Positions 55,675-62,414 of a DNA stretch of 64,000 nucleotides are shown here, piece by piece (the first letter of the stretch is position 1; every line of letters begins with the position of its first letter). This DNA comes from Oscillospiraceae bacterium (GTDB taxonomy: Bacteria; Bacillota; Clostridia; Oscillospirales; CAG-382). The notes below the pieces were generated by a model, which was not told where the DNA came from, did no database searches, and was given only the letters and a program-made list of their open reading frames with translations. The stretch is taken from NCBI GenBank assembly GCA_015064485.1, contig SVSD01000005.1, positions 42,255 through 106,254 of the forward strand. The letters are read 5' to 3'. The translations under genes and the position numbers were made by a program.

Positions 55675-55703
55675 GTCAAAACAGGCCTTTCGTGCATACT
55701 ATA
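55675..55703 (+). promoter_or_regulatory. Possible mother-cell (sigmaK/sigmaE-type) promoter of spoVFA
   Basis: CATACTATA at 55695-55703 matches CATAnnnTA; TCA lies 16 bp upstream; the -35 match is weak. Confidence 0.45.
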
Positions 55704-55733
55704 ATGTATAATCATGCGAAAGGAATAAAGACA

Positions 55734-56528
55734 ATGCTATTAAAAAAAATCGCTGTCATAGGCGGCGATGCCCGTTTTGCGGTATGTGCAGAACTTTTTG
55801 CAAAAAAAGGCTGCGAATGTGCGGTTTTCGGACTTGAAAAAGCCGAAAATCTCTTGATGGCAACCAAAAGTGCAACAATATACGATGCTGTTTCGGGTTG
55901 TGATGCTATAATTCTTCCGATACCTGTGTCGAAAGACAATGATCAGGCTTTCTCGCCTCTATCGGATTTTAAAATAAGTTTGACCGATATTTTAGAAAAT
56001 ATAAAGGGCGATCCGATCATTTTTATCGGTCAAAGCAAGGAATCCGTTCAAAATTCACAATTGTCAGAATTTGATATTATAACATATACAGCATCAAAAA
56101 CTTTTGCATTGCTCGGAAGCGTTCCGACTGCCGAATGTGCCATATCAACCGCTACTTATCACAGCCGTAAATGCTGCTGCAATTCAAGATACCTTATCGT
56201 AGGATGCGGTAATGTCGGTAAACGCTTAGGTCTGCTTTCAAAGAATATGGGTGCGGATGTTTTTATATCCGCAAGAAAAAAAGAAGATCTCGCGTGGATA
56301 GAAGCTCACGGAATGATCCCTTTGAAAACATACGATCTTTCGTCAGAAAAGGTTGAATTTGATGTAATATTCAATACAGTCCCCCACATGGTTCTGGGAG
56401 AACAAGTTCTTAAAAATCTTAAAGGTTATCCTTTGATTATAGAACTTGCTTCAAAACCCTACGGGGCGGGTTTTAAACAAAAAAGGGAATATAAAAAAGT
56501 CCGGAGTGCAAAGAAAAAAGATAACTGA
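55734..56528 (+). CDS. spoVFA: Dipicolinate synthase subunit A, 5' fragment (interrupted after codon 243; the rest of the ORF is element-derived read-through)
   Basis: IAVIGGDAR, ILPIP, VPTAE, GCGNVG, VIFNTVP, IIELASKPYG; homology stops there and the conserved GLPGK C-terminus is found at 61711-61857. Confidence 0.92.
   Translation: MLLKKIAVIGGDARFAVCAELFAKKGCECAVFGLEKAENLLMATKSATIYDAVSGCDAIILPIPVSKDNDQAFSPLSDFKISLTDILENIKGDPIIFIGQSKESVQNSQLSEFDIITYTASKTFALLGSVPTAECAISTATYHSRKCCCNSRYLIVGCGNVGKRLGLLSKNMGADVFISARKKEDLAWIEAHGMIPLKTYDLSSEKVEFDVIFNTVPHMVLGEQVLKNLKGYPLIIELASKPYGAGFKQKREYKKVRSAKKKDN
56453..56477 (+). repeat. Left recombination site (attL-like)
   Basis: aaaaccc-tacGGggc-gggttttaaa; imperfect direct repeat of 61701-61725; dyad centred on GG 56463-56464. 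Confidence 0.85.
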
Positions 56529-56615
56529 AAGAAAAATCAAGATAAAAATCCGATAAAATGAAAGAAAAACTCAAAAACTGAGTTTTTTTAAATAATTATT
56601 TTTTTGCTATCCCCT

Positions 56616-56652
56616 AAAAAAGGAGCTGTAAAAAACTACAGCTCCTTCTTTA
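56616..56652. terminator. Intrinsic terminator of the symporter gene (likely bidirectional)
   Basis: aaaaaaggagctgta-aaaaac-tacagctccttcttt. Confidence 0.8.
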
Positions 56653-56659
56653 TTGATTT

Positions 56660-58264
56660 TTATTTACTTCCGAGATTTTGTTTTGCGTCAACTAAAACTT
56701 TTCTGTCATAGCAAGCAAACATTTTATCAACCTCATCCTTGTCGGGCTTTTTAGTAATAAGGCTCACAACAGGAACGAGTATAAGTCCGCCCACCATAGC
56801 AAAAACACCGGAGTAAAGTGAGTTTGTAAATACAAAGCTCAAGAATCCTTCGGGGAAGGAAAGTCCGCAAATATCCTTTACAAGCTGAACGATTTCAACA
56901 CCGGTACCGAAAATGAAGCTCACAACAACTGCGCTCTTTGTAACGCCCTTCCAGTACAAACCGTAAAGGAAAGGAGCAAGGAATGCACCGGCAAGCGCGC
57001 CCCATGATACACCCATCATCTGAGCTATAAAAGTAGCTCCCGGGAAGCTGTCTTTAACTATTGCAATTACAGCAGATACAACCACAAAGAAAAGAACGAA
57101 AAGTCTGAGTATCAAAAGTTTCTGTTTCTCAGAAACCTTCTTATCTCTTTTTTTCATAACAGGAACTATAACATCGAGTGTCAAAGTCGAGCTTGAAGTA
57201 AGGACAAGAGACGAAAGCGTAGACATAGATGCAGCAAGAACAAGTACAATGACCGTTGCGACAATTACAGGATTAAGTTCAGAAAGCATTGCGGGAACAA
57301 TATTATCCTTCAAAAGTTTCGAACCCACTTCGCCGTTTGCCCATATTGCGCTGTTGTTTGCGTAAAGTCTTCCGAAGCCACCGAGAAAATAACAGCCGCC
57401 CGCTACGATTATAGCAAATATCGTAGAAATTACTGTGCCTTTTTTGATTGAATCTTCGCTGTCTATTGAATAGAATTTGCCGACCATCTGAGGAAGTCCC
57501 CATGTGCCGAGAGATGTAAGTATTACAACAAACAATAAAAATACAGGGTTAGGTCCGAGGAATGACGAATAAGCACCCATAAGTCCGCTCGATCCGTTTT
57601 CGATTACGGAAAGACCTCTGTATGCTTCCATAAATCCGCCGTTGTCAACAAGAACCGCCGCAATTACCGCAACTATACCGACAAGCATAATAATGCCCTG
57701 AATAAAATCGTTTATCGCAGTTGCCATATATCCGCCGAATATTACATAAACACCTGTAAGTGCCGCCATAATGATAATAACGAGCCAGTACGGAATATTG
57801 AAAGCTGAATTGAAAAGGCTCGAAAGTCCGTTATATAACGACGCTGTATAAGGAATAAGAAAAAGAAAAACTATAACAGAAGCTATTGTTTTCAAACTGC
57901 CGGACTGATATCTTTTACCAAAAAAGTCAGGCATTGTTTTCGAGCCCAGATGCTGTGTCATAACTCTTGTTCTTCTTCCGAGAATTACCCAGGGAAGAAG
58001 CGATCCGATAAATGCATTTCCAAGACCTATCCAAGTAGATGCAAGACCGAATTCCCATCCGAACTGACCCGCATATCCGACAAAAATAACTGCCGAAAAA
58101 TACGAAGTACCGAAAGCAAAAGCCGTAAGCCAAGGACCTACCGAGCGTCCGCCAAGAACAAATCCGTCAACATTTGTTGAATGTTTTCTGCAGTATAAGC
58201 CAACGCCTATCATAATTGCAAAAAACGCTGTAAGCATTACGATCGTGATAACCGCCTTTACCAT
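56660..58264 (-). CDS. Sodium:solute symporter (SSS/PutP superfamily)
   Basis: FVLGGRSVGPW, YFSAVIFVG, GGYMATAINDFIQG, WGLPQM, AASMSTLSS; about 13 TM segments. Confidence 0.92.
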   Translation of the reverse strand: MVKAVITIVMLTAFFAIMIGVGLYCRKHSTNVDGFVLGGRSVGPWLTAFAFGTSYFSAVIFVGYAGQFGWEFGLASTWIGLGNAFIGSLLPWVILGRRTRVMTQHLGSKTMPDFFGKRYQSGSLKTIASVIVFLFLIPYTASLYNGLSSLFNSAFNIPYWLVIIIMAALTGVYVIFGGYMATAINDFIQGIIMLVGIVAVIAAVLVDNGGFMEAYRGLSVIENGSSGLMGAYSSFLGPNPVFLLFVVILTSLGTWGLPQMVGKFYSIDSEDSIKKGTVISTIFAIIVAGGCYFLGGFGRLYANNSAIWANGEVGSKLLKDNIVPAMLSELNPVIVATVIVLVLAASMSTLSSLVLTSSSTLTLDVIVPVMKKRDKKVSEKQKLLILRLFVLFFVVVSAVIAIVKDSFPGATFIAQMMGVSWGALAGAFLAPFLYGLYWKGVTKSAVVVSFIFGTGVEIVQLVKDICGLSFPEGFLSFVFTNSLYSGVFAMVGGLILVPVVSLITKKPDKDEVDKMFACYDRKVLVDAKQNLGSK

Positions 58265-58314
58265 TTTAATACCTTCTTTCATTTTTTATTTTTTATGGAA
58301 AACGGTAAAATGGT

Positions 58315-58578
58315 AAAAAAATAACCGTCCTCCAACAAAAGAGGACGGAAAAATCCGTGGTACCACCTCAATTTACCGATATGTTACCATATCAGCCTCA
58401 TCAGGCACATTCTATGCCTTATTGCTGTAACGGGCAAACCCGGCGCAGCCTACTCTTCGCATTTCGGTGCGCAGCTCACAAGATGTATTCGCCAAGTTCT
58501 TTCTTACTGTCTCTCACCGCCCGACAGCTCTCTTAAAAGGTAAGAAAAAGGCTACTTCTTCTCGGTCATCGCTTCTAT
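58315..58578 (-). ncRNA. T-box leader, predicted Tyr (UAC) specifier
   Basis: AGAGAG and GGTGAGA stem I motifs; GAA-TAC-A specifier loop (58485-58490); AAATTGAGGTGGTACCACGG T-box (58355-58374); terminator 58325-58348. Confidence 0.88.
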
Positions 58579-58585
58579 ATCGTGT

Positions 58586-58614
58586 ATTCTACTACAAAAA
58601 ACTAACCTTGTCAA
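58586..58614 (-). promoter_or_regulatory. sigmaA promoter of the Tyr T-box/symporter unit
   Basis: TTGACA-17 bp-TAGAAT; the -35 hexamer overlaps the recombinase stop codon. Confidence 0.75.
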
Positions 58615-59510
58615 GTGTTTTTTGCATTTTTATTAAATCTTTTATTTACCTCCGAAAAAGTTATTTCGTCAACAATAGCTTCGTGTGTTCCGCATACTGT
58701 TATCAGATCGTTTTTTGAGTTTTTATATCTCTTTTCAGTCTTATAATTTATCTTTTTTTCAAATCCTTGGGTAATATCTCCTTTGTATGTAGGATTAGTA
58801 AGAATTCTTTTTATCATCACACTGTTCCAGGCATTGCTTTTTCTTCGATTATCCCTTTTCAAAGACGAAGGCGTAGCAATACCTTCTGCCGTAAGCTCTT
58901 TTGCAATCAACAGCATACTTTTTCCTTCAAGAAATCCTCTATAAATTCTTAAGACCGTATCTTTTGTATTTTTATCGGGAACAAGCTTTGATGGGTCCTT
59001 TTCATCTTTTGTGTAACCGTACGGCGCTGAACTTCCTATAAACTTTCCCGCTCTGCGCCTTGAATCAAGTGCACATCGAACCTTTCTGCTTATATCTTTT
59101 GCATACATATCATTGAAAACAGCTCTGAAAGGTATCATATCGTTTCCGCCGGATTCTGACATAGTATCAACGCCGTCATTGACAGCTATATACCGTATGC
59201 CGTTTTCGGGGAAAAACCTTTCTATATACTCCCCTGTTTCGATATAATCTCTGCCAAGGCGGGACATATCTTTTGTTATTATACATAAAAACTTCTTTGA
59301 AAGAGCATCATTAATCATTTTTTCAAATGACGGACGCCTGAAATTTGTGCCGCTGTAACCGTCGTCAACATATTCTGCAATTATTGTAAAATTGTTTTTG
59401 TTACAATAGTTTTCAAGGAACATTCTTTGAGAAGCGATGCTGTCAGACTCCCCTTTTACTCCGTCATCTTTTGAAAGCCTTAGATATATCGCACAAGCCT
59501 CGTTTTCCAT
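58611..59510 (-). CDS. Serine site-specific recombinase (resolvase catalytic domain + recombinase domain), SpoIVCA-like but short
   Basis: IYLRLS catalytic Ser, YVDDGYSGTNF.RP, KDMSRLGRD, APYGY, ILTNPTYKG, HEAIV; ends at 299 aa with no Cys zinc ribbon. Confidence 0.93.
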   Translation of the reverse strand: MENEACAIYLRLSKDDGVKGESDSIASQRMFLENYCNKNNFTIIAEYVDDGYSGTNFRRPSFEKMINDALSKKFLCIITKDMSRLGRDYIETGEYIERFFPENGIRYIAVNDGVDTMSESGGNDMIPFRAVFNDMYAKDISRKVRCALDSRRRAGKFIGSSAPYGYTKDEKDPSKLVPDKNTKDTVLRIYRGFLEGKSMLLIAKELTAEGIATPSSLKRDNRRKSNAWNSVMIKRILTNPTYKGDITQGFEKKINYKTEKRYKNSKNDLITVCGTHEAIVDEITFSEVNKRFNKNAKNT

Positions 59511-59569
59511 ACAAAAAACCTCACGAACACACTGTAAAACAGTATATTCGCAAGGTCTTAATTATTTTA

Positions 59570-59995
59570 CTATTTGTTGTTTTTATTTTCTTTTTTATCT
59601 TTTCGCTTTGCTTTTATTATTTTTATATCAGATTTTGCTTTTTGATAGAGATCTCTTAATATTCCGAGAGTTTTTTCGTCATTCGGAAACAGGAATTTCA
59701 AAAGCCCGAGTGCGATTGCAACAGTCACTATTTTTTCCGGCGAAAACGGGAACCATAAGATCGTAAGATATGCGCCTGATACCGCAACCATCCACTCAAT
59801 GCCAAAATATACGCCGAACGCCATAAAAACATATGCCCAGCCGTTTGTTATAAGCCAGCCTATCCCAAAGCACAGCAAAAACCTCGGATTAAAAATAAGA
59901 AAAAACAGCTTTATGATGAAGTTTTTTATAAATACTGCAGCTTTTGAATGAGATAGCTTCAAAAAAAACTCTTTGATACTTCTTTTGTCTTTCAA
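59570..59995 (-). CDS. Hypothetical membrane protein
   Basis: 141 aa, 2-3 TM segments, Lys-rich tail; has its own sigmaA-like promoter. Confidence 0.75.
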   Translation of the reverse strand: MKDKRSIKEFFLKLSHSKAAVFIKNFIIKLFFLIFNPRFLLCFGIGWLITNGWAYVFMAFGVYFGIEWMVAVSGAYLTILWFPFSPEKIVTVAIALGLLKFLFPNDEKTLGILRDLYQKAKSDIKIIKAKRKDKKENKNNK

Positions 59996-60039
59996 TAATA
60001 TGTCTTCCTTTTAGAAATTACGGCAAAGCCGACGGAAAT

Positions 60040-60068
60040 ATTATACTTTAAAATGCGCAAAATTTCAA
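60040..60068 (-). promoter_or_regulatory. sigmaA-like promoter of the membrane-protein gene
   Basis: TTGAAA-17 bp-TATAAT. Confidence 0.6.
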
Positions 60069-60076
60069 TAGAAAAC

Positions 60077-60111
60077 AAAAAAGTCCTCCCCTTTTCGTAA
60101 ATAAGGGGAGG
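60077..60111 (-). terminator. serS terminator
   Basis: cctcccctt...aaggggagg hairpin with a T-run on the minus strand. Confidence 0.75.
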
Positions 60112-60117
60112 GAAATT

Positions 60118-61404
60118 TTATTTCTTGGGAACTATCTTTTCAGCGCCGCCCATATAAGGACGAAGAGCGACAGGAATATTTACACTTCCGTCAGCATTAA
60201 GATTGTTTTCAAGGAAGGCTATAAGCATTCTGGGAGGAGCGACAACTGTGTTGTTAAGGGTATGAGCAAGATATTTGGAATCTTTTCCGTTTACTCTTAT
60301 CTTAAGTCTTCTTGCCTGTGCATCGCCAAGGTTAGAACAGCTGCCTACTTCAAAATATTTCTGCTGTCTGGGAGACCACGCCTCAACATCAACAGATTTT
60401 ACCTTAAGATCTGCAAGGTCACCCGAGCAACATTCAAGAGTTCTTACCGGAATATCCATCGAACGGAAAAGATCAACGGTATTCTGCCAGAGCTTGTCAA
60501 ACCACATCGGGCTTTCTTCGGGCTTACATACAACGATCATTTCCTGTTTTTCAAACTGATGGATGCGGTATACACCTCGCTCTTCGATACCGTGAGCGCC
60601 CTTTTCCTTGCGGAAACAGGGAGAATAGCTTGTAAGAGTCTGAGGAAGCTGTTCTTCGGGGATTATCTGGTCGATAAACTTACCGATCATAGAGTGTTCG
60701 GAAGTACCTATAAGATAAAGATCCTCTCCTTCGATCTTATACATCATAGCTTCCATTTCCGCAAAGCTCATAACTCCGGTTACAACATCTGAACGGATCA
60801 TAAAAGGAGGTACACAATATGTGAATCCGCGGTCGATCATAAAATCACGAGCATAAGAAATTACCGCAGAATGAAGACGGGCAATATCACCCATAAGATA
60901 ATAAAAGCCGTTGCCTGCAACTCTTCTTGCGCTGTCAAGGTCGATACCGTTAAAGCTTTCCATAATATCTGTGTGATAAGGAATCTCGTAATCGGGAGTT
61001 ACGGGTTCACCGTATCTCTGAACTTCAACATTTTCGCTGTCATCTTTACCGATGGGAACTGTAGGGTCGATGATCTGAGGAATTATCATCATAATCTTTT
61101 TGATTTTTTCCTCGTATTCGGCTTCAAGAGCTTCGCACTCAGCAAGTCTTGCTGCCTGCTGACCGACAATTTTTTTCATTTCTTCAGCTTCGTCTTTTTT
61201 GCCCTGTCCCATAAGAGCACCGATCATCTTGGAGCACTTGTTTCGTTCAGCTCTGAGTCCGTCAGCTTCAAGCTTTACGGCTCTTGAGTTTTTATCGAGC
61301 TCTATTACCTCGTCAACAAGTTCCAGCTTATGATCCTGAAACTTGTTTTTGATATTTTGCTTTACCACATCAGGGTTTTCACGCAAAAACTTAATATCAA
61401 TCAT
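60118..61404 (-). CDS. serS: Seryl-tRNA synthetase
   Basis: MIDIKFLREN N-terminal coiled coil, LIGTSEH, CFRKEKG..RIHQFEKQE, EVGSCSN, HTLNNT..PPR; full length, 428 aa. Confidence 0.97.
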   Translation of the reverse strand: MIDIKFLRENPDVVKQNIKNKFQDHKLELVDEVIELDKNSRAVKLEADGLRAERNKCSKMIGALMGQGKKDEAEEMKKIVGQQAARLAECEALEAEYEEKIKKIMMIIPQIIDPTVPIGKDDSENVEVQRYGEPVTPDYEIPYHTDIMESFNGIDLDSARRVAGNGFYYLMGDIARLHSAVISYARDFMIDRGFTYCVPPFMIRSDVVTGVMSFAEMEAMMYKIEGEDLYLIGTSEHSMIGKFIDQIIPEEQLPQTLTSYSPCFRKEKGAHGIEERGVYRIHQFEKQEMIVVCKPEESPMWFDKLWQNTVDLFRSMDIPVRTLECCSGDLADLKVKSVDVEAWSPRQQKYFEVGSCSNLGDAQARRLKIRVNGKDSKYLAHTLNNTVVAPPRMLIAFLENNLNADGSVNIPVALRPYMGGAEKIVPKK

Positions 61405-61433
61405 TTTTTCTTCCTCCGAAAATAGTTTTTATA

Positions 61434-61648
61434 AAAAAAGAGTTCTTCCCCACAAATATGGGACGAAGAACTCCGTGTTGCCACCCAAATTGCCGTATAT
61501 ACGGCCACTCAAAAAAGCTGTAAGGGGCTTATCCCCAAGACTCATCGTCTTATGCTCCGAAAGCGGAAAAGCAAAAAACCGACAGCCGATCACACCTTCC
61601 TCGGCCTCTCTTTCGAACAGTCAATTGCCGTTTCTTTCATCATAGCTT
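61434..61648 (-). ncRNA. T-box leader of serS, predicted Ser (UCC) specifier
   Basis: AGAGAG/GGTGTGA motifs; TCC at 61565-61567; AATTTGGGTGGCAACACGG (61473-61491), whose UGGC matches the GCCA end of tRNA-Ser; terminator present. Confidence 0.88.
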
Positions 61649-61652
61649 TAAT

Positions 61653-61681
61653 ATTATACACCAAAAAACCACAAAATGCAA
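61653..61681 (-). promoter_or_regulatory. sigmaA promoter of serS
   Basis: TTGCAT-17 bp-TATAAT, lying just inside the right recombination site. Confidence 0.75.
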
Positions 61682-61697
61682 GATAAATTTTCAACAA

Positions 61698-61722
61698 TTT
61701 AAAACCCGGCGGGGTGGATTTT
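61698..61722 (+). repeat. Right recombination site (attR-like)
   Basis: tttaaaaccc-ggcGGggt-ggatttt; dyad centred on GG 61711-61712. Confidence 0.85.
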
Positions 61723-61857
61723 GAGTGTGCAGAAAAAATAGGACTGAAAACTGTTATAGCCTCAGGACTTCCGGGAAAATATACACCGGTAACTGCAGGA
61801 GAAATAGTTTACAGGTGCATATGTGATGCTCTTGAAGAAAGGGGTTTTGAAATATGA
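61711..61857 (+). CDS. spoVFA: Dipicolinate synthase subunit A, 3' fragment (48 codons, no start of its own)
   Basis: GVDFECAEKIGLKTVIASGLPGKYTPVTAGEIVYRCICDALEERGFEI*, matching the conserved SpoVFA C-terminus; the stop overlaps the spoVFB start (ATGA). Confidence 0.9.
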   Translation, partial: GVDFECAEKIGLKTVIASGLPGKYTPVTAGEIVYRCICDALEERGFEI

Positions 61858-62414
61858 TAGGTTTTTGCCTCACAGGCTCGTTTTGCTCATTTGAGAAAAG
61901 TATAAATGTTATGAAAAATCTTTCTCAAAAGTATGAAATCTTACCGATCATGTCGCAGAATGCATATAATTTGGATACAAAATTCGGAAAAGCAGAAGAT
62001 TTCAGAAGCAAAATAAAGGAAATATGTAATAAAGATATAATCCATACCATAACAGAGGCAGAACCGATAGGACCAGCCGTAAAACTCGACTGTCTTGTAG
62101 TCTGTCCGTGTACGGGAAATACATTATCAAAAATAGCCTGCGGCATTACAGATACAAGCGCCACAATGGCAATAAAAGCACAGCTCAGAAACGAAAGACC
62201 GGTGCTTCTTGCAATTGCATCAAACGACGGACTTTCCGGTTCTTCGGTTTCTGTGTCAAAGCTTTTGCAAAGGGAAAATATTTACTTTGTCCCCTTCTCG
62301 CAGGACTCCCCTTTTAAAAAGCCCCGTTCTGTTGTATGCGATTTTGATAAAACCGGAGAAGCTCTGTCCCTTGCCCTTGAAGGCAAACAAATTCAGCCTA
62401 TACTTTACAGTTGA
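61854..62414 (+). CDS. spoVFB: Dipicolinate synthase subunit B
   Basis: GFCLTGSFC, AEPIGP, PCTGNTLSK, NDGL, YFVPFSQD..KKPRS, QIQP. Confidence 0.95.
   Translation: MIGFCLTGSFCSFEKSINVMKNLSQKYEILPIMSQNAYNLDTKFGKAEDFRSKIKEICNKDIIHTITEAEPIGPAVKLDCLVVCPCTGNTLSKIACGITDTSATMAIKAQLRNERPVLLAIASNDGLSGSSVSVSKLLQRENIYFVPFSQDSPFKKPRSVVCDFDKTGEALSLALEGKQIQPILYS

Follow-up and report, generated by a model that had tools for sequence, protein, structure and literature searches.

In a 64,000-nucleotide stretch of contig SVSD01000005.1 from an Oscillospiraceae bacterium (the window, whose positions serve as coordinates throughout), the dipicolinate synthase A-subunit gene dpaA (spoVFA) is split at codon 258 by an element of 5,248 bp. 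The sole recombinase of this element is a serine recombinase of only 299 amino acids (aa), and all four element genes, for a symporter, the recombinase, a 141-aa membrane protein and seryl-tRNA synthetase (serS), lie on the minus strand (Table 1). The genome from which the window comes (G000; other G numbers denote further genomes of the family) yields one DpaA_N match in its 1.60-Mb, 94% complete assembly, indicating that dpaA is single-copy, and SpoIVA, SpoVAC/EB and Spo0A are all encoded. The open reading frame (ORF) of the 5′ part of dpaA continues into element DNA and stops at 56528, and inspection of the sequence reveals no evident start codon with a ribosome-binding site for the 3′ piece. 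Crossover at a GG dinucleotide would join the two parts in frame (...ELASKPYG/VDFECAEK..., with the slash marking the junction), upstream of a dpaB gene that is 67-75% identical among congeners. The locus thus has the makings of a sporulation intervening element, a group that includes skin, SPbeta, vfbin, vrin, gin and yin, in which a mother-cell sporulation gene is split, the recombinase is encoded within the insertion, and excision would restore the frame.

As a large serine recombinase, the 299-aa protein is reduced to little more than its catalytic and recombinase domains. Pfam Resolvase (PF00239) matches residues 7-156 (E 9e-24) and Recombinase (PF07508) matches residues 182-295 (E 1.8e-20; profile positions 3-102 of 102), and the chain ends in ...GTHEAIVDEITFSEVNKRFNKNAKNT, 19 residues past HEAIV. 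Of five cysteines, none lies in a CxxC motif; the zinc ribbon PF13408 gives no match at E≤0.01, and the final element of an AlphaFold model is a single helix (residues 282-297) with no coiled coil. The protein also falls outside the small serine recombinases, which measure ~180-200 aa and carry HTH_7, a domain without a match here at E≤0.01. Residues R11 and S13 and the SRLGR motif (S83, R84, G86, R87) are invariant across 108 aligned relatives; we take R11 and S13 to be the candidate catalytic Arg-Ser pair and presume that the SRLGR residues are catalytic as well. The AlphaFold model, built with the same 108 relatives as input, has a mean predicted local distance difference test (pLDDT) score of 86.8 and superposes on solved large serine integrases along their N-terminal ~300 residues, the SPbeta type giving the best template-modelling (TM) score (0.72-0.75 on the query) and Bxb1 and phiC31 following. 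By sequence, the catalytic domain of TnpX is nearest among solved chains (E 1.3e-30). The recombinase stop codon (TGA, 58613-58611) sits within the −35 element (TTGACA, 58614-58609) of the next promoter, which has a 17-nt spacer and a TAGAAT ending at 58586 and is followed by a T-box leader. On each of these details, namely intact catalytic and recombinase domains, an end about 20 residues past HEAIV, no CxxC motif and a stop codon inside TTGACA, the original prediction of a minimal recombinase, drawn from the letters of this stretch alone, was correct.

That prediction would be hard to maintain if the close homologs were all about 500 aa long, which is not what we find. The top 22 of 120 database matches listed (58-92% identity) are all 294-306 aa in length and lack PF13408, and among these 120 the full-length relatives of ~500 aa first appear at 44-56% identity. 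When aligned, the short proteins stop exactly where the zinc ribbon of the long relatives begins (HLLSGL..C..CG). Matches to the recombinase at E≤1e-40 occur in 61 of 164 family genomes, with the short type confined to G000 and six other species of the same genus, whose proteins are 54-68% identical to that of G000 in this search and 53-64% in the comparison used for substitution rates; the next-best match in these 164 genomes is 46% identical and longer than 530 aa. In the seven species the reading frames terminate no more than a few residues apart, the gene lies at the same dpaA codon in all six congeners, and every genus member with the gene (7/7) has the layout dpaA_N, symporter, short recombinase, ..., dpaA_C-dpaB, in which the symporter gene immediately follows that of the recombinase in the direction of transcription. 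In both of two trees, the second of which retained 138 of 139 sequences, the genus short type forms one clade of 33 leaves (26 database representatives and 7 genomes). A 516-aa protein that was sister to this clade in the first tree (P0023) was not used, given that its residues from 299 onward match the catalytic domain, an arrangement that points to extra N-terminal sequence, a duplication or a fusion. A metagenome scan for close relatives gave a best match of 50% identity, together with two full-length loci of the dpaA type (L047, L054).

The ratio of nonsynonymous to synonymous substitution rates (dN/dS), which the original prediction had put forward as a check, was calculated by the Nei-Gojobori method. 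For the recombinase it is 0.12 between G122 and G123 (dS 0.89), and 0.14 and 0.13 for G125 against G122 and G123, respectively. In the same three pairs dpaB gives 0.115-0.125, and the 5′ part of dpaA gives 0.27 for G122-G123. These values indicate purifying selection on the recombinase at a level like that on the flanking dpaB. The order of divergence, with G122 and G123 closest, then G125, then G000, and G128 far away, is identical for the recombinase, serS, pfk and a LUD-domain gene, which fits vertical descent of the element.

The sites at which the element would be excised were defined from its junctions. Uninterrupted dpaA in three congeners (G124, G126, G127) reads ELASKPYG(V/I)D(F/L), and other genera have KPGGVDF; the congener reading fixes the crossover at the GG that follows TAC, such that excision would restore the genus-typical frame. 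Counting outward from this axis, P and P′, the two arms on the element side, match each other in 5-7 of the seven species at 11 of the 13 positions from 2 to 14, the exceptions being positions 3 and 7 (three and four species, respectively), and in only 0-2 species at positions 15-23. The motif AAAAYCC at positions 6-12 is common to all four half-sites, the host-side arms sharing this core. The outer bases covary in G128 and G130, reading TGCAAAA instead of TTTAAAA on P and P′ and (T/C)GCAAAA on B′. The alignment of seven species therefore indicates att sites of 28 bp composed of two 14-bp half-sites, all four alike, with symmetry and conservation ending at position 14, in agreement with the short symmetric sites of about 28 bp that had been predicted. 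Beyond position 14 the alignment contains no conserved or symmetric outer motif. Typical large serine integrases act on an attP of ~50 bp and an attB of ~40 bp that are unlike and carry shifted outer motifs, an arrangement not found in these seven species. In the attP half-site of LI integrase (PMC3783163), the recombinase-domain region covers positions 1-12 and the zinc-ribbon motif positions 16-24, with the zinc-ribbon motif of attB at positions 11-19. By that map, the sites of the dpaA element end where a zinc ribbon would begin to read. Within the 1.6-Mb assembly, no further copy of the 28-bp site besides attL and attR occurs at ≤6 mismatches.

Large serine integrases commonly act with a recombination directionality factor (RDF), and the original prediction noted no obvious one in the element. 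Indeed, no small RDF-like ORF is present, the only ORF other than symporter, recombinase and serS being that of the 141-aa membrane protein, and the 3,055-bp element of G130, which contains symporter and recombinase alone, leaves no room for such a factor. The membrane protein was considered as an RDF and rejected, since it is missing from G128 and G130 and hence dispensable; it has a lysine-rich tail, adjoins the recombinase and is 55-67% identical across five species. A search of 12 short loci with 80 C-terminal queries likewise uncovered no coding remnant of a zinc ribbon (best real E 0.007).

Element length varies widely around the constant pair of recombinase and symporter. The membrane ORF and serS are found in five of the seven species (G000, G122, G123, G125, G129) and neither occurs in G128 or G130; SerS is 94% identical in the three compared. 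For the six species in which both ends could be joined (those of G125 fall on separate contigs), the elements measure 3,055 bp (G130), 4,459 bp (G128), 5,248 bp (G000), 5,689 bp (G123), 5,953 bp (G122) and 18,542 bp (G129). The longest (G129:C16:9831-28373; L041 and L168) holds about a dozen ORFs of 182-902 aa in addition to serS, which read as ordinary metabolic and regulatory genes; a second recombinase and genes for phage or transfer functions are all absent from it. A search with PF02403 found one match above the cut-off in G000, such that the element holds the only serS found; excision in the germ line would delete an essential gene, thereby locking the element in place. In the T-box leader that precedes the symporter, the specifier is GAA-UAC-A, with a Tyr codon, which suggests an amino-acid transporter controlled by tRNA-Tyr. 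In the three congeners without the element, no symporter ortholog exceeded 47% identity.

Expression offers a plausible point of control. In the five species that have a gene upstream of the recombinase, a hairpin followed by a U-run lies 4-10 nt before the recombinase start, and its 3′ arm includes the Shine-Dalgarno sequence. Folded as single sequences, the five hairpins have energies of −23 to −32.5 kcal/mol (z −4.5 to −8.4), and none of 200 shuffles is as stable. The hairpin is kept despite differing sequence (window 59516-59558 on the minus strand, L041:8977-9037, L042:8238-8303, L043:9106-9171 and L044:8842-8907). An ATA-N2-3-TA box precedes the recombinase in all seven species, and presumably resembles the −10 element of mother-cell sigma factors. 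A terminator hairpin in this position would bury the ribosome-binding site on transcripts from upstream. The CATA-type box within it may act as a promoter in the mother cell; transcripts initiated there would omit the 5′ arm and leave the ribosome-binding site accessible. Silence in growing cells would have to be tightly enforced, because the element carries the sole serS. Direction might in this way be governed by the timing of expression alone, as the original prediction proposed.

Table 1. Features of the dpaA locus in the window, and dpaA-resident relatives grouped by architecture.
Feature	Position or locus	Strand	Evidence
dpaA (spoVFA) 5′ part, to crossover	55692..56463	+	Pfam DpaA_N E 4.2e-23
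attL, 28 bp, axis between G56463 and G56464 (central GG)	56450..56477	+	junction alignment, 7 species
Intervening element, 5,248 bp	56464..61711	.	junction comparison
Sodium:solute symporter (SSF), cargo	56660..58282	-	Pfam SSF E 1.2e-55; synteny
T-box leader of symporter	58338..58578	-	Rfam RF00230, 130.6 bits
Sigma-70-type promoter of T-box unit; −35 contains recombinase stop	58586..58614	-	consensus match 11/12
Serine recombinase, 299 aa: catalytic domain, helix E, recombinase domain; zinc ribbon and coiled coil absent	58611..59510	-	ORF list, Pfam, relatives, dN/dS, AlphaFold
Terminator-like hairpin and U-run, just 5′ of recombinase start	59516..59558	-	fold energy −27.7 kcal/mol, z −8.1
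141-aa predicted membrane protein, no Pfam family	59570..59995	-	ORF list, Pfam
Seryl-tRNA synthetase (serS)	60118..61404	-	Pfam
T-box leader of serS	61456..61652	-	Rfam RF00230, 93.6 bits
attR, 28 bp, axis between G61711 and G61712	61698..61725	+	junction alignment
dpaA 3′ part	61712..61857	+	in frame with 5′ part after GG crossover; overlaps dpaB start
dpaB (spoVFB), intact	61854..62414	+	Pfam Flavoprotein E 1.2e-27
dpaA-resident, full-length	L169 Clostridium leptum DSM 753 (490 aa), L213 (489 aa), L229 (499 aa), L047 (506 aa), L054 (501 aa)		
dpaA-resident, zinc ribbon kept, C-terminus shortened	L191 (401 aa), L205 (433 aa)		
dpaA-resident, no zinc ribbon	L180 (361 aa), L170 (299 aa), L223 (288 aa), L177 (284 aa)		

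We consider it likely that the 299-aa protein is a working, autonomous and direction-free large serine recombinase in shortened form, whose developmental role is to excise from dpaA an insertion that has been domesticated and is inherited vertically. Dimers would bind the two 28-bp end sites, each 14-bp half-site corresponding to the reach of a catalytic plus a recombinase domain. The dimers on attL and attR would then synapse, cut at the central GG and exchange strands by subunit rotation. This would release the 5,248-bp element as a circle and rejoin dpaA at codon 258 in frame (KPYG/VDF), so that dipicolinate synthase could be made in the mother cell. We propose that a protein without a coiled coil does not impose the block on attL × attR recombination and hence needs no RDF, and that deletion is favoured because the reaction is intramolecular and the mother cell is terminal. 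Some attL × attR deletion without an RDF has been described for LI integrase from which the coiled coil was deleted (PMC5499577). From this combination of features we infer that the protein is active by itself.

Several observations weigh against this interpretation. No excision product is evident: the assembly holds attL and attR only, and in four of 17 listed sequencing runs, all of them Logan contigs, the contigs contain integrated junctions and no joint between 56463 and 61712, although their depth of ~3-6x on long pieces is too low to bear on excision. Contigs of run X1 cover attL (56200-56577) and attR (61457-62000) with no differences, and similar pieces occur in runs X2 and X4. DNA binding by phiC31 integrase depends on its zinc ribbon. 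LI integrase without its coiled coil dimerises more than 100-fold more weakly and yields only a small fraction of deletion product (PMC5499577). The dN/dS values derive from three related pairs, dS being saturated in most others. The seven species and the clade of 33 leaves are not independent of one another, and amount to a single loss event that has persisted. Finally, the promoter and timing of the recombinase are read from resemblances to consensus sequences, and may be regarded as candidates.

The alternative that best survives, although we judge it unlikely, is that the short protein is catalytically competent and depends on a partner to bind or synapse its sites, which could be a host protein that bends or binds DNA, or a further recombinase in place of the lost zinc ribbon. 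Small serine recombinases use accessory sites or proteins, and G000 encodes two full-length serine recombinases. Model large serine integrases rely on their C-terminal domain to dimerise tightly and to form product efficiently (PMC5499577). The two full-length proteins are each 36-37% identical to the short one and have a DUF4368 C-terminus. One (556 aa; G000:C5:13921-15591, L249:4422-6092) adjoins NikA-like, relaxase and ParB genes and by this setting probably belongs to a mobilisable element; the other (552 aa) lies at G000:C24:459-2117 (L250). Integrases of this type, one of them beside transfer functions, are unlikely helpers. Moreover, no second serine recombinase at E≤1e-40 occurs in G123 or G130, whose genomes are 80% and 75% complete, and neither G128 nor G130 has the 141-aa membrane protein, which is the only ORF outside the cargo. 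The original prediction had itself allowed for a partner encoded elsewhere, to which the lack of any stand-alone zinc ribbon encoded in G000 speaks unfavourably.

It is far less probable that the recombinase is a decaying relic in a permanently split dpaA, with dipicolinate supplied through a different pathway or by a DpaA made as two polypeptides. Some Clostridia do make dipicolinate without DpaAB, and no excision was seen in the assembly or in the contigs of four runs. A relic should not, however, retain dN/dS values of 0.12-0.14 across species whose synonymous sites are mostly saturated, invariant candidate catalytic residues, a frame that ends at nearly the same point in seven species, or att arms that are symmetric and covary. 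The intact and conserved dpaB, and a 3′ dpaA piece without evident start codon and ribosome-binding site, also argue against a dpaA that stays in two pieces.

Recent truncation in this strain, by insertion of the T-box-symporter unit into a full-length integrase gene, would explain why the stop codon overlaps the promoter of that unit and why the symporter is always directly downstream, but can be set aside as hardly credible given the same end point and the same neighbour in seven species and the lack of a zinc-ribbon remnant beyond the symporter or elsewhere in the loci. The original prediction had raised truncation at symporter insertion as its alternative. As an account of how the short gene arose this keeps some merit, the symporter being downstream in 7/7 species; as a recent disabling event it fails. 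If insertion of the symporter did cause the loss, the event took place in the common ancestor and its product was kept.

With an autonomous excisase as the preferred reading, we turn to relatives elsewhere in the Clostridia, of which 80 genome loci with 41-53% identical recombinases were surveyed. Flanks of 3 kb were taken and some loci are cut by contig ends, so that links to dpaA may be missed. Nine of the 80 lie beside pieces of dpaA, and all nine, plus the two metagenome loci, are inserted at the same CGG/GG position (Table 1). Of the 71 loci away from dpaA, 69 encode proteins of 506-550 aa, the exceptions being L225 (408 aa) and L208, which runs off its contig. Forms without a zinc ribbon occur at several separate positions in the trees, by which the zinc ribbon appears to have been lost several times among dpaA-resident relatives. 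In the recombinase domain the mean net charge is +11.3 for the 33 members of the genus clade, +9.1 for 12 other short forms and +7.1 for 80 long forms; because kin are not independent, the higher positive charge of the short forms is a hint only.

Some of these loci have features of their own. In the cultured type strain Clostridium leptum DSM 753 (L169; DS480347.1:16793-23665), dpaA is split by a ~3.5-kb element that encodes the 490-aa recombinase and ORFs of 219 and 195 aa; the locus would be a handy experimental comparator. Proteins of 372-449 aa that keep the zinc ribbon and have little or no coiled coil are represented by L191, L205, P0068, P0069, P0074, P0078, P0090, P0112 and P0113, of which L191 and L205 are beside dpaA. 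The 361-aa protein of an Anaerotruncus sp. metagenome-assembled genome (L180:3001-4086) has a tail of ~70 aa unlike the rest of the family, and its site arms share an outer CAGAAT motif at unequal spacing.

A broader scenario, to which we give slightly less than even weight, is that dpaA-resident integrases have repeatedly shed direction control, losing first the coiled coil (401-433 aa) and then the zinc ribbon (284-299 aa) while their att sites shrank to 28-bp palindromes. The end product would be a third architecture, consisting of catalytic and recombinase domains only, with half-length sites, no RDF and no accessory sites, used as an excision-only developmental switch and, in this genus, locked in by a captured serS whose loss on germ-line excision would be lethal.

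Known systems provide partial parallels, those that split sporulation genes relying on full-length enzymes together with RDFs. Like the dpaA element, the gin element in gerE of Bacillus cereus ATCC 10987 is a non-phage insertion in a mother-cell sporulation gene, which a serine recombinase rejoins at a short core flanked by inverted repeats. The gin recombinase GirC is a full-length protein of 58 kDa that integrates alone and requires the 6.5-kDa RDF GirX for excision (PMC5595907), whereas the element studied here targets dpaA with a 299-aa enzyme that has neither zinc ribbon nor coiled coil and no RDF candidate. The skin element of sigK is similar in that developmental excision restores a late mother-cell gene. 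Its recombinase is reportedly SpoIVCA in B. subtilis and CD1231, acting with the RDF CD1234, in C. difficile; the short symmetric sites of the dpaA element and its lack of an RDF candidate set it apart from the latter. Skin recombinases in general are described as SpoIVCA-like large serine recombinases (bioRxiv 10.1101/2022.02.25.481979). The dipicolinate synthase operon is also interrupted by vfbin, which resides in spoVFB (dpaB) of Bacillus weihenstephanensis KBAB4 (PMC4191935, PMC10747680). However, vfbin is prophage-like and occupies the B-subunit gene in Bacilli, and the present element is an insertion of 3-18 kb with metabolic genes in the A-subunit gene of gut Clostridia. Our searches of the open-access literature found no description of an element that splits dpaA/spoVFA or of a natural family member without a zinc ribbon.

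At the protein level, the short recombinase shares the fold and order of catalytic domain, helix E and recombinase domain, as well as a non-palindromic central dinucleotide, with the phage integrases LI/A118, Bxb1, phiC31 and SPbeta SprA. In those enzymes a coiled coil is embedded in the zinc ribbon, and this module recognises the outer att motifs and, with an RDF, sets direction; the short recombinase lacks it altogether, and its site stops at position 14. Small serine recombinases such as gamma-delta/Tn3 resolvase, Hin and Gin resemble it in their ~26-28 bp crossover sites with two alike half-sites, all sites being equivalent for binding. They rely on accessory sites or Fis for direction, and are ~180-200 aa with a small C-terminal helix-turn-helix, whereas a recombinase domain of ~140 aa would bind DNA in the protein described here. 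The engineered LI integrase without a coiled coil is a parallel in that coiled-coil loss removes the attL × attR block (PMC5499577). That laboratory deletion retains the zinc ribbon and gives a poor yield, whereas both parts have been lost naturally from the short recombinase, whose gene appears to be under selection.

Structural and biochemical studies of serine integrases assign recognition of the outer att sequence, and the setting of direction, to a module formed by the zinc ribbon and coiled coil. The present lineage lost that module and yet appears to have stayed under selection, with sites that stop at the point where the module would start, and offers a natural test of how much the catalytic and recombinase domains can achieve unaided. 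If the protein is active, its 0.9-kb gene and 28-bp sites would make it an unusually compact recombinase of the large family, which could suit uses in which reversible or excision-only recombination is wanted. The locus also adds dpaA to the targets of sporulation intervening elements and uncultured gut Clostridia to their hosts. Its load of housekeeping genes, one of them essential, is relevant to how selfish insertions become fixed in a developmental programme.

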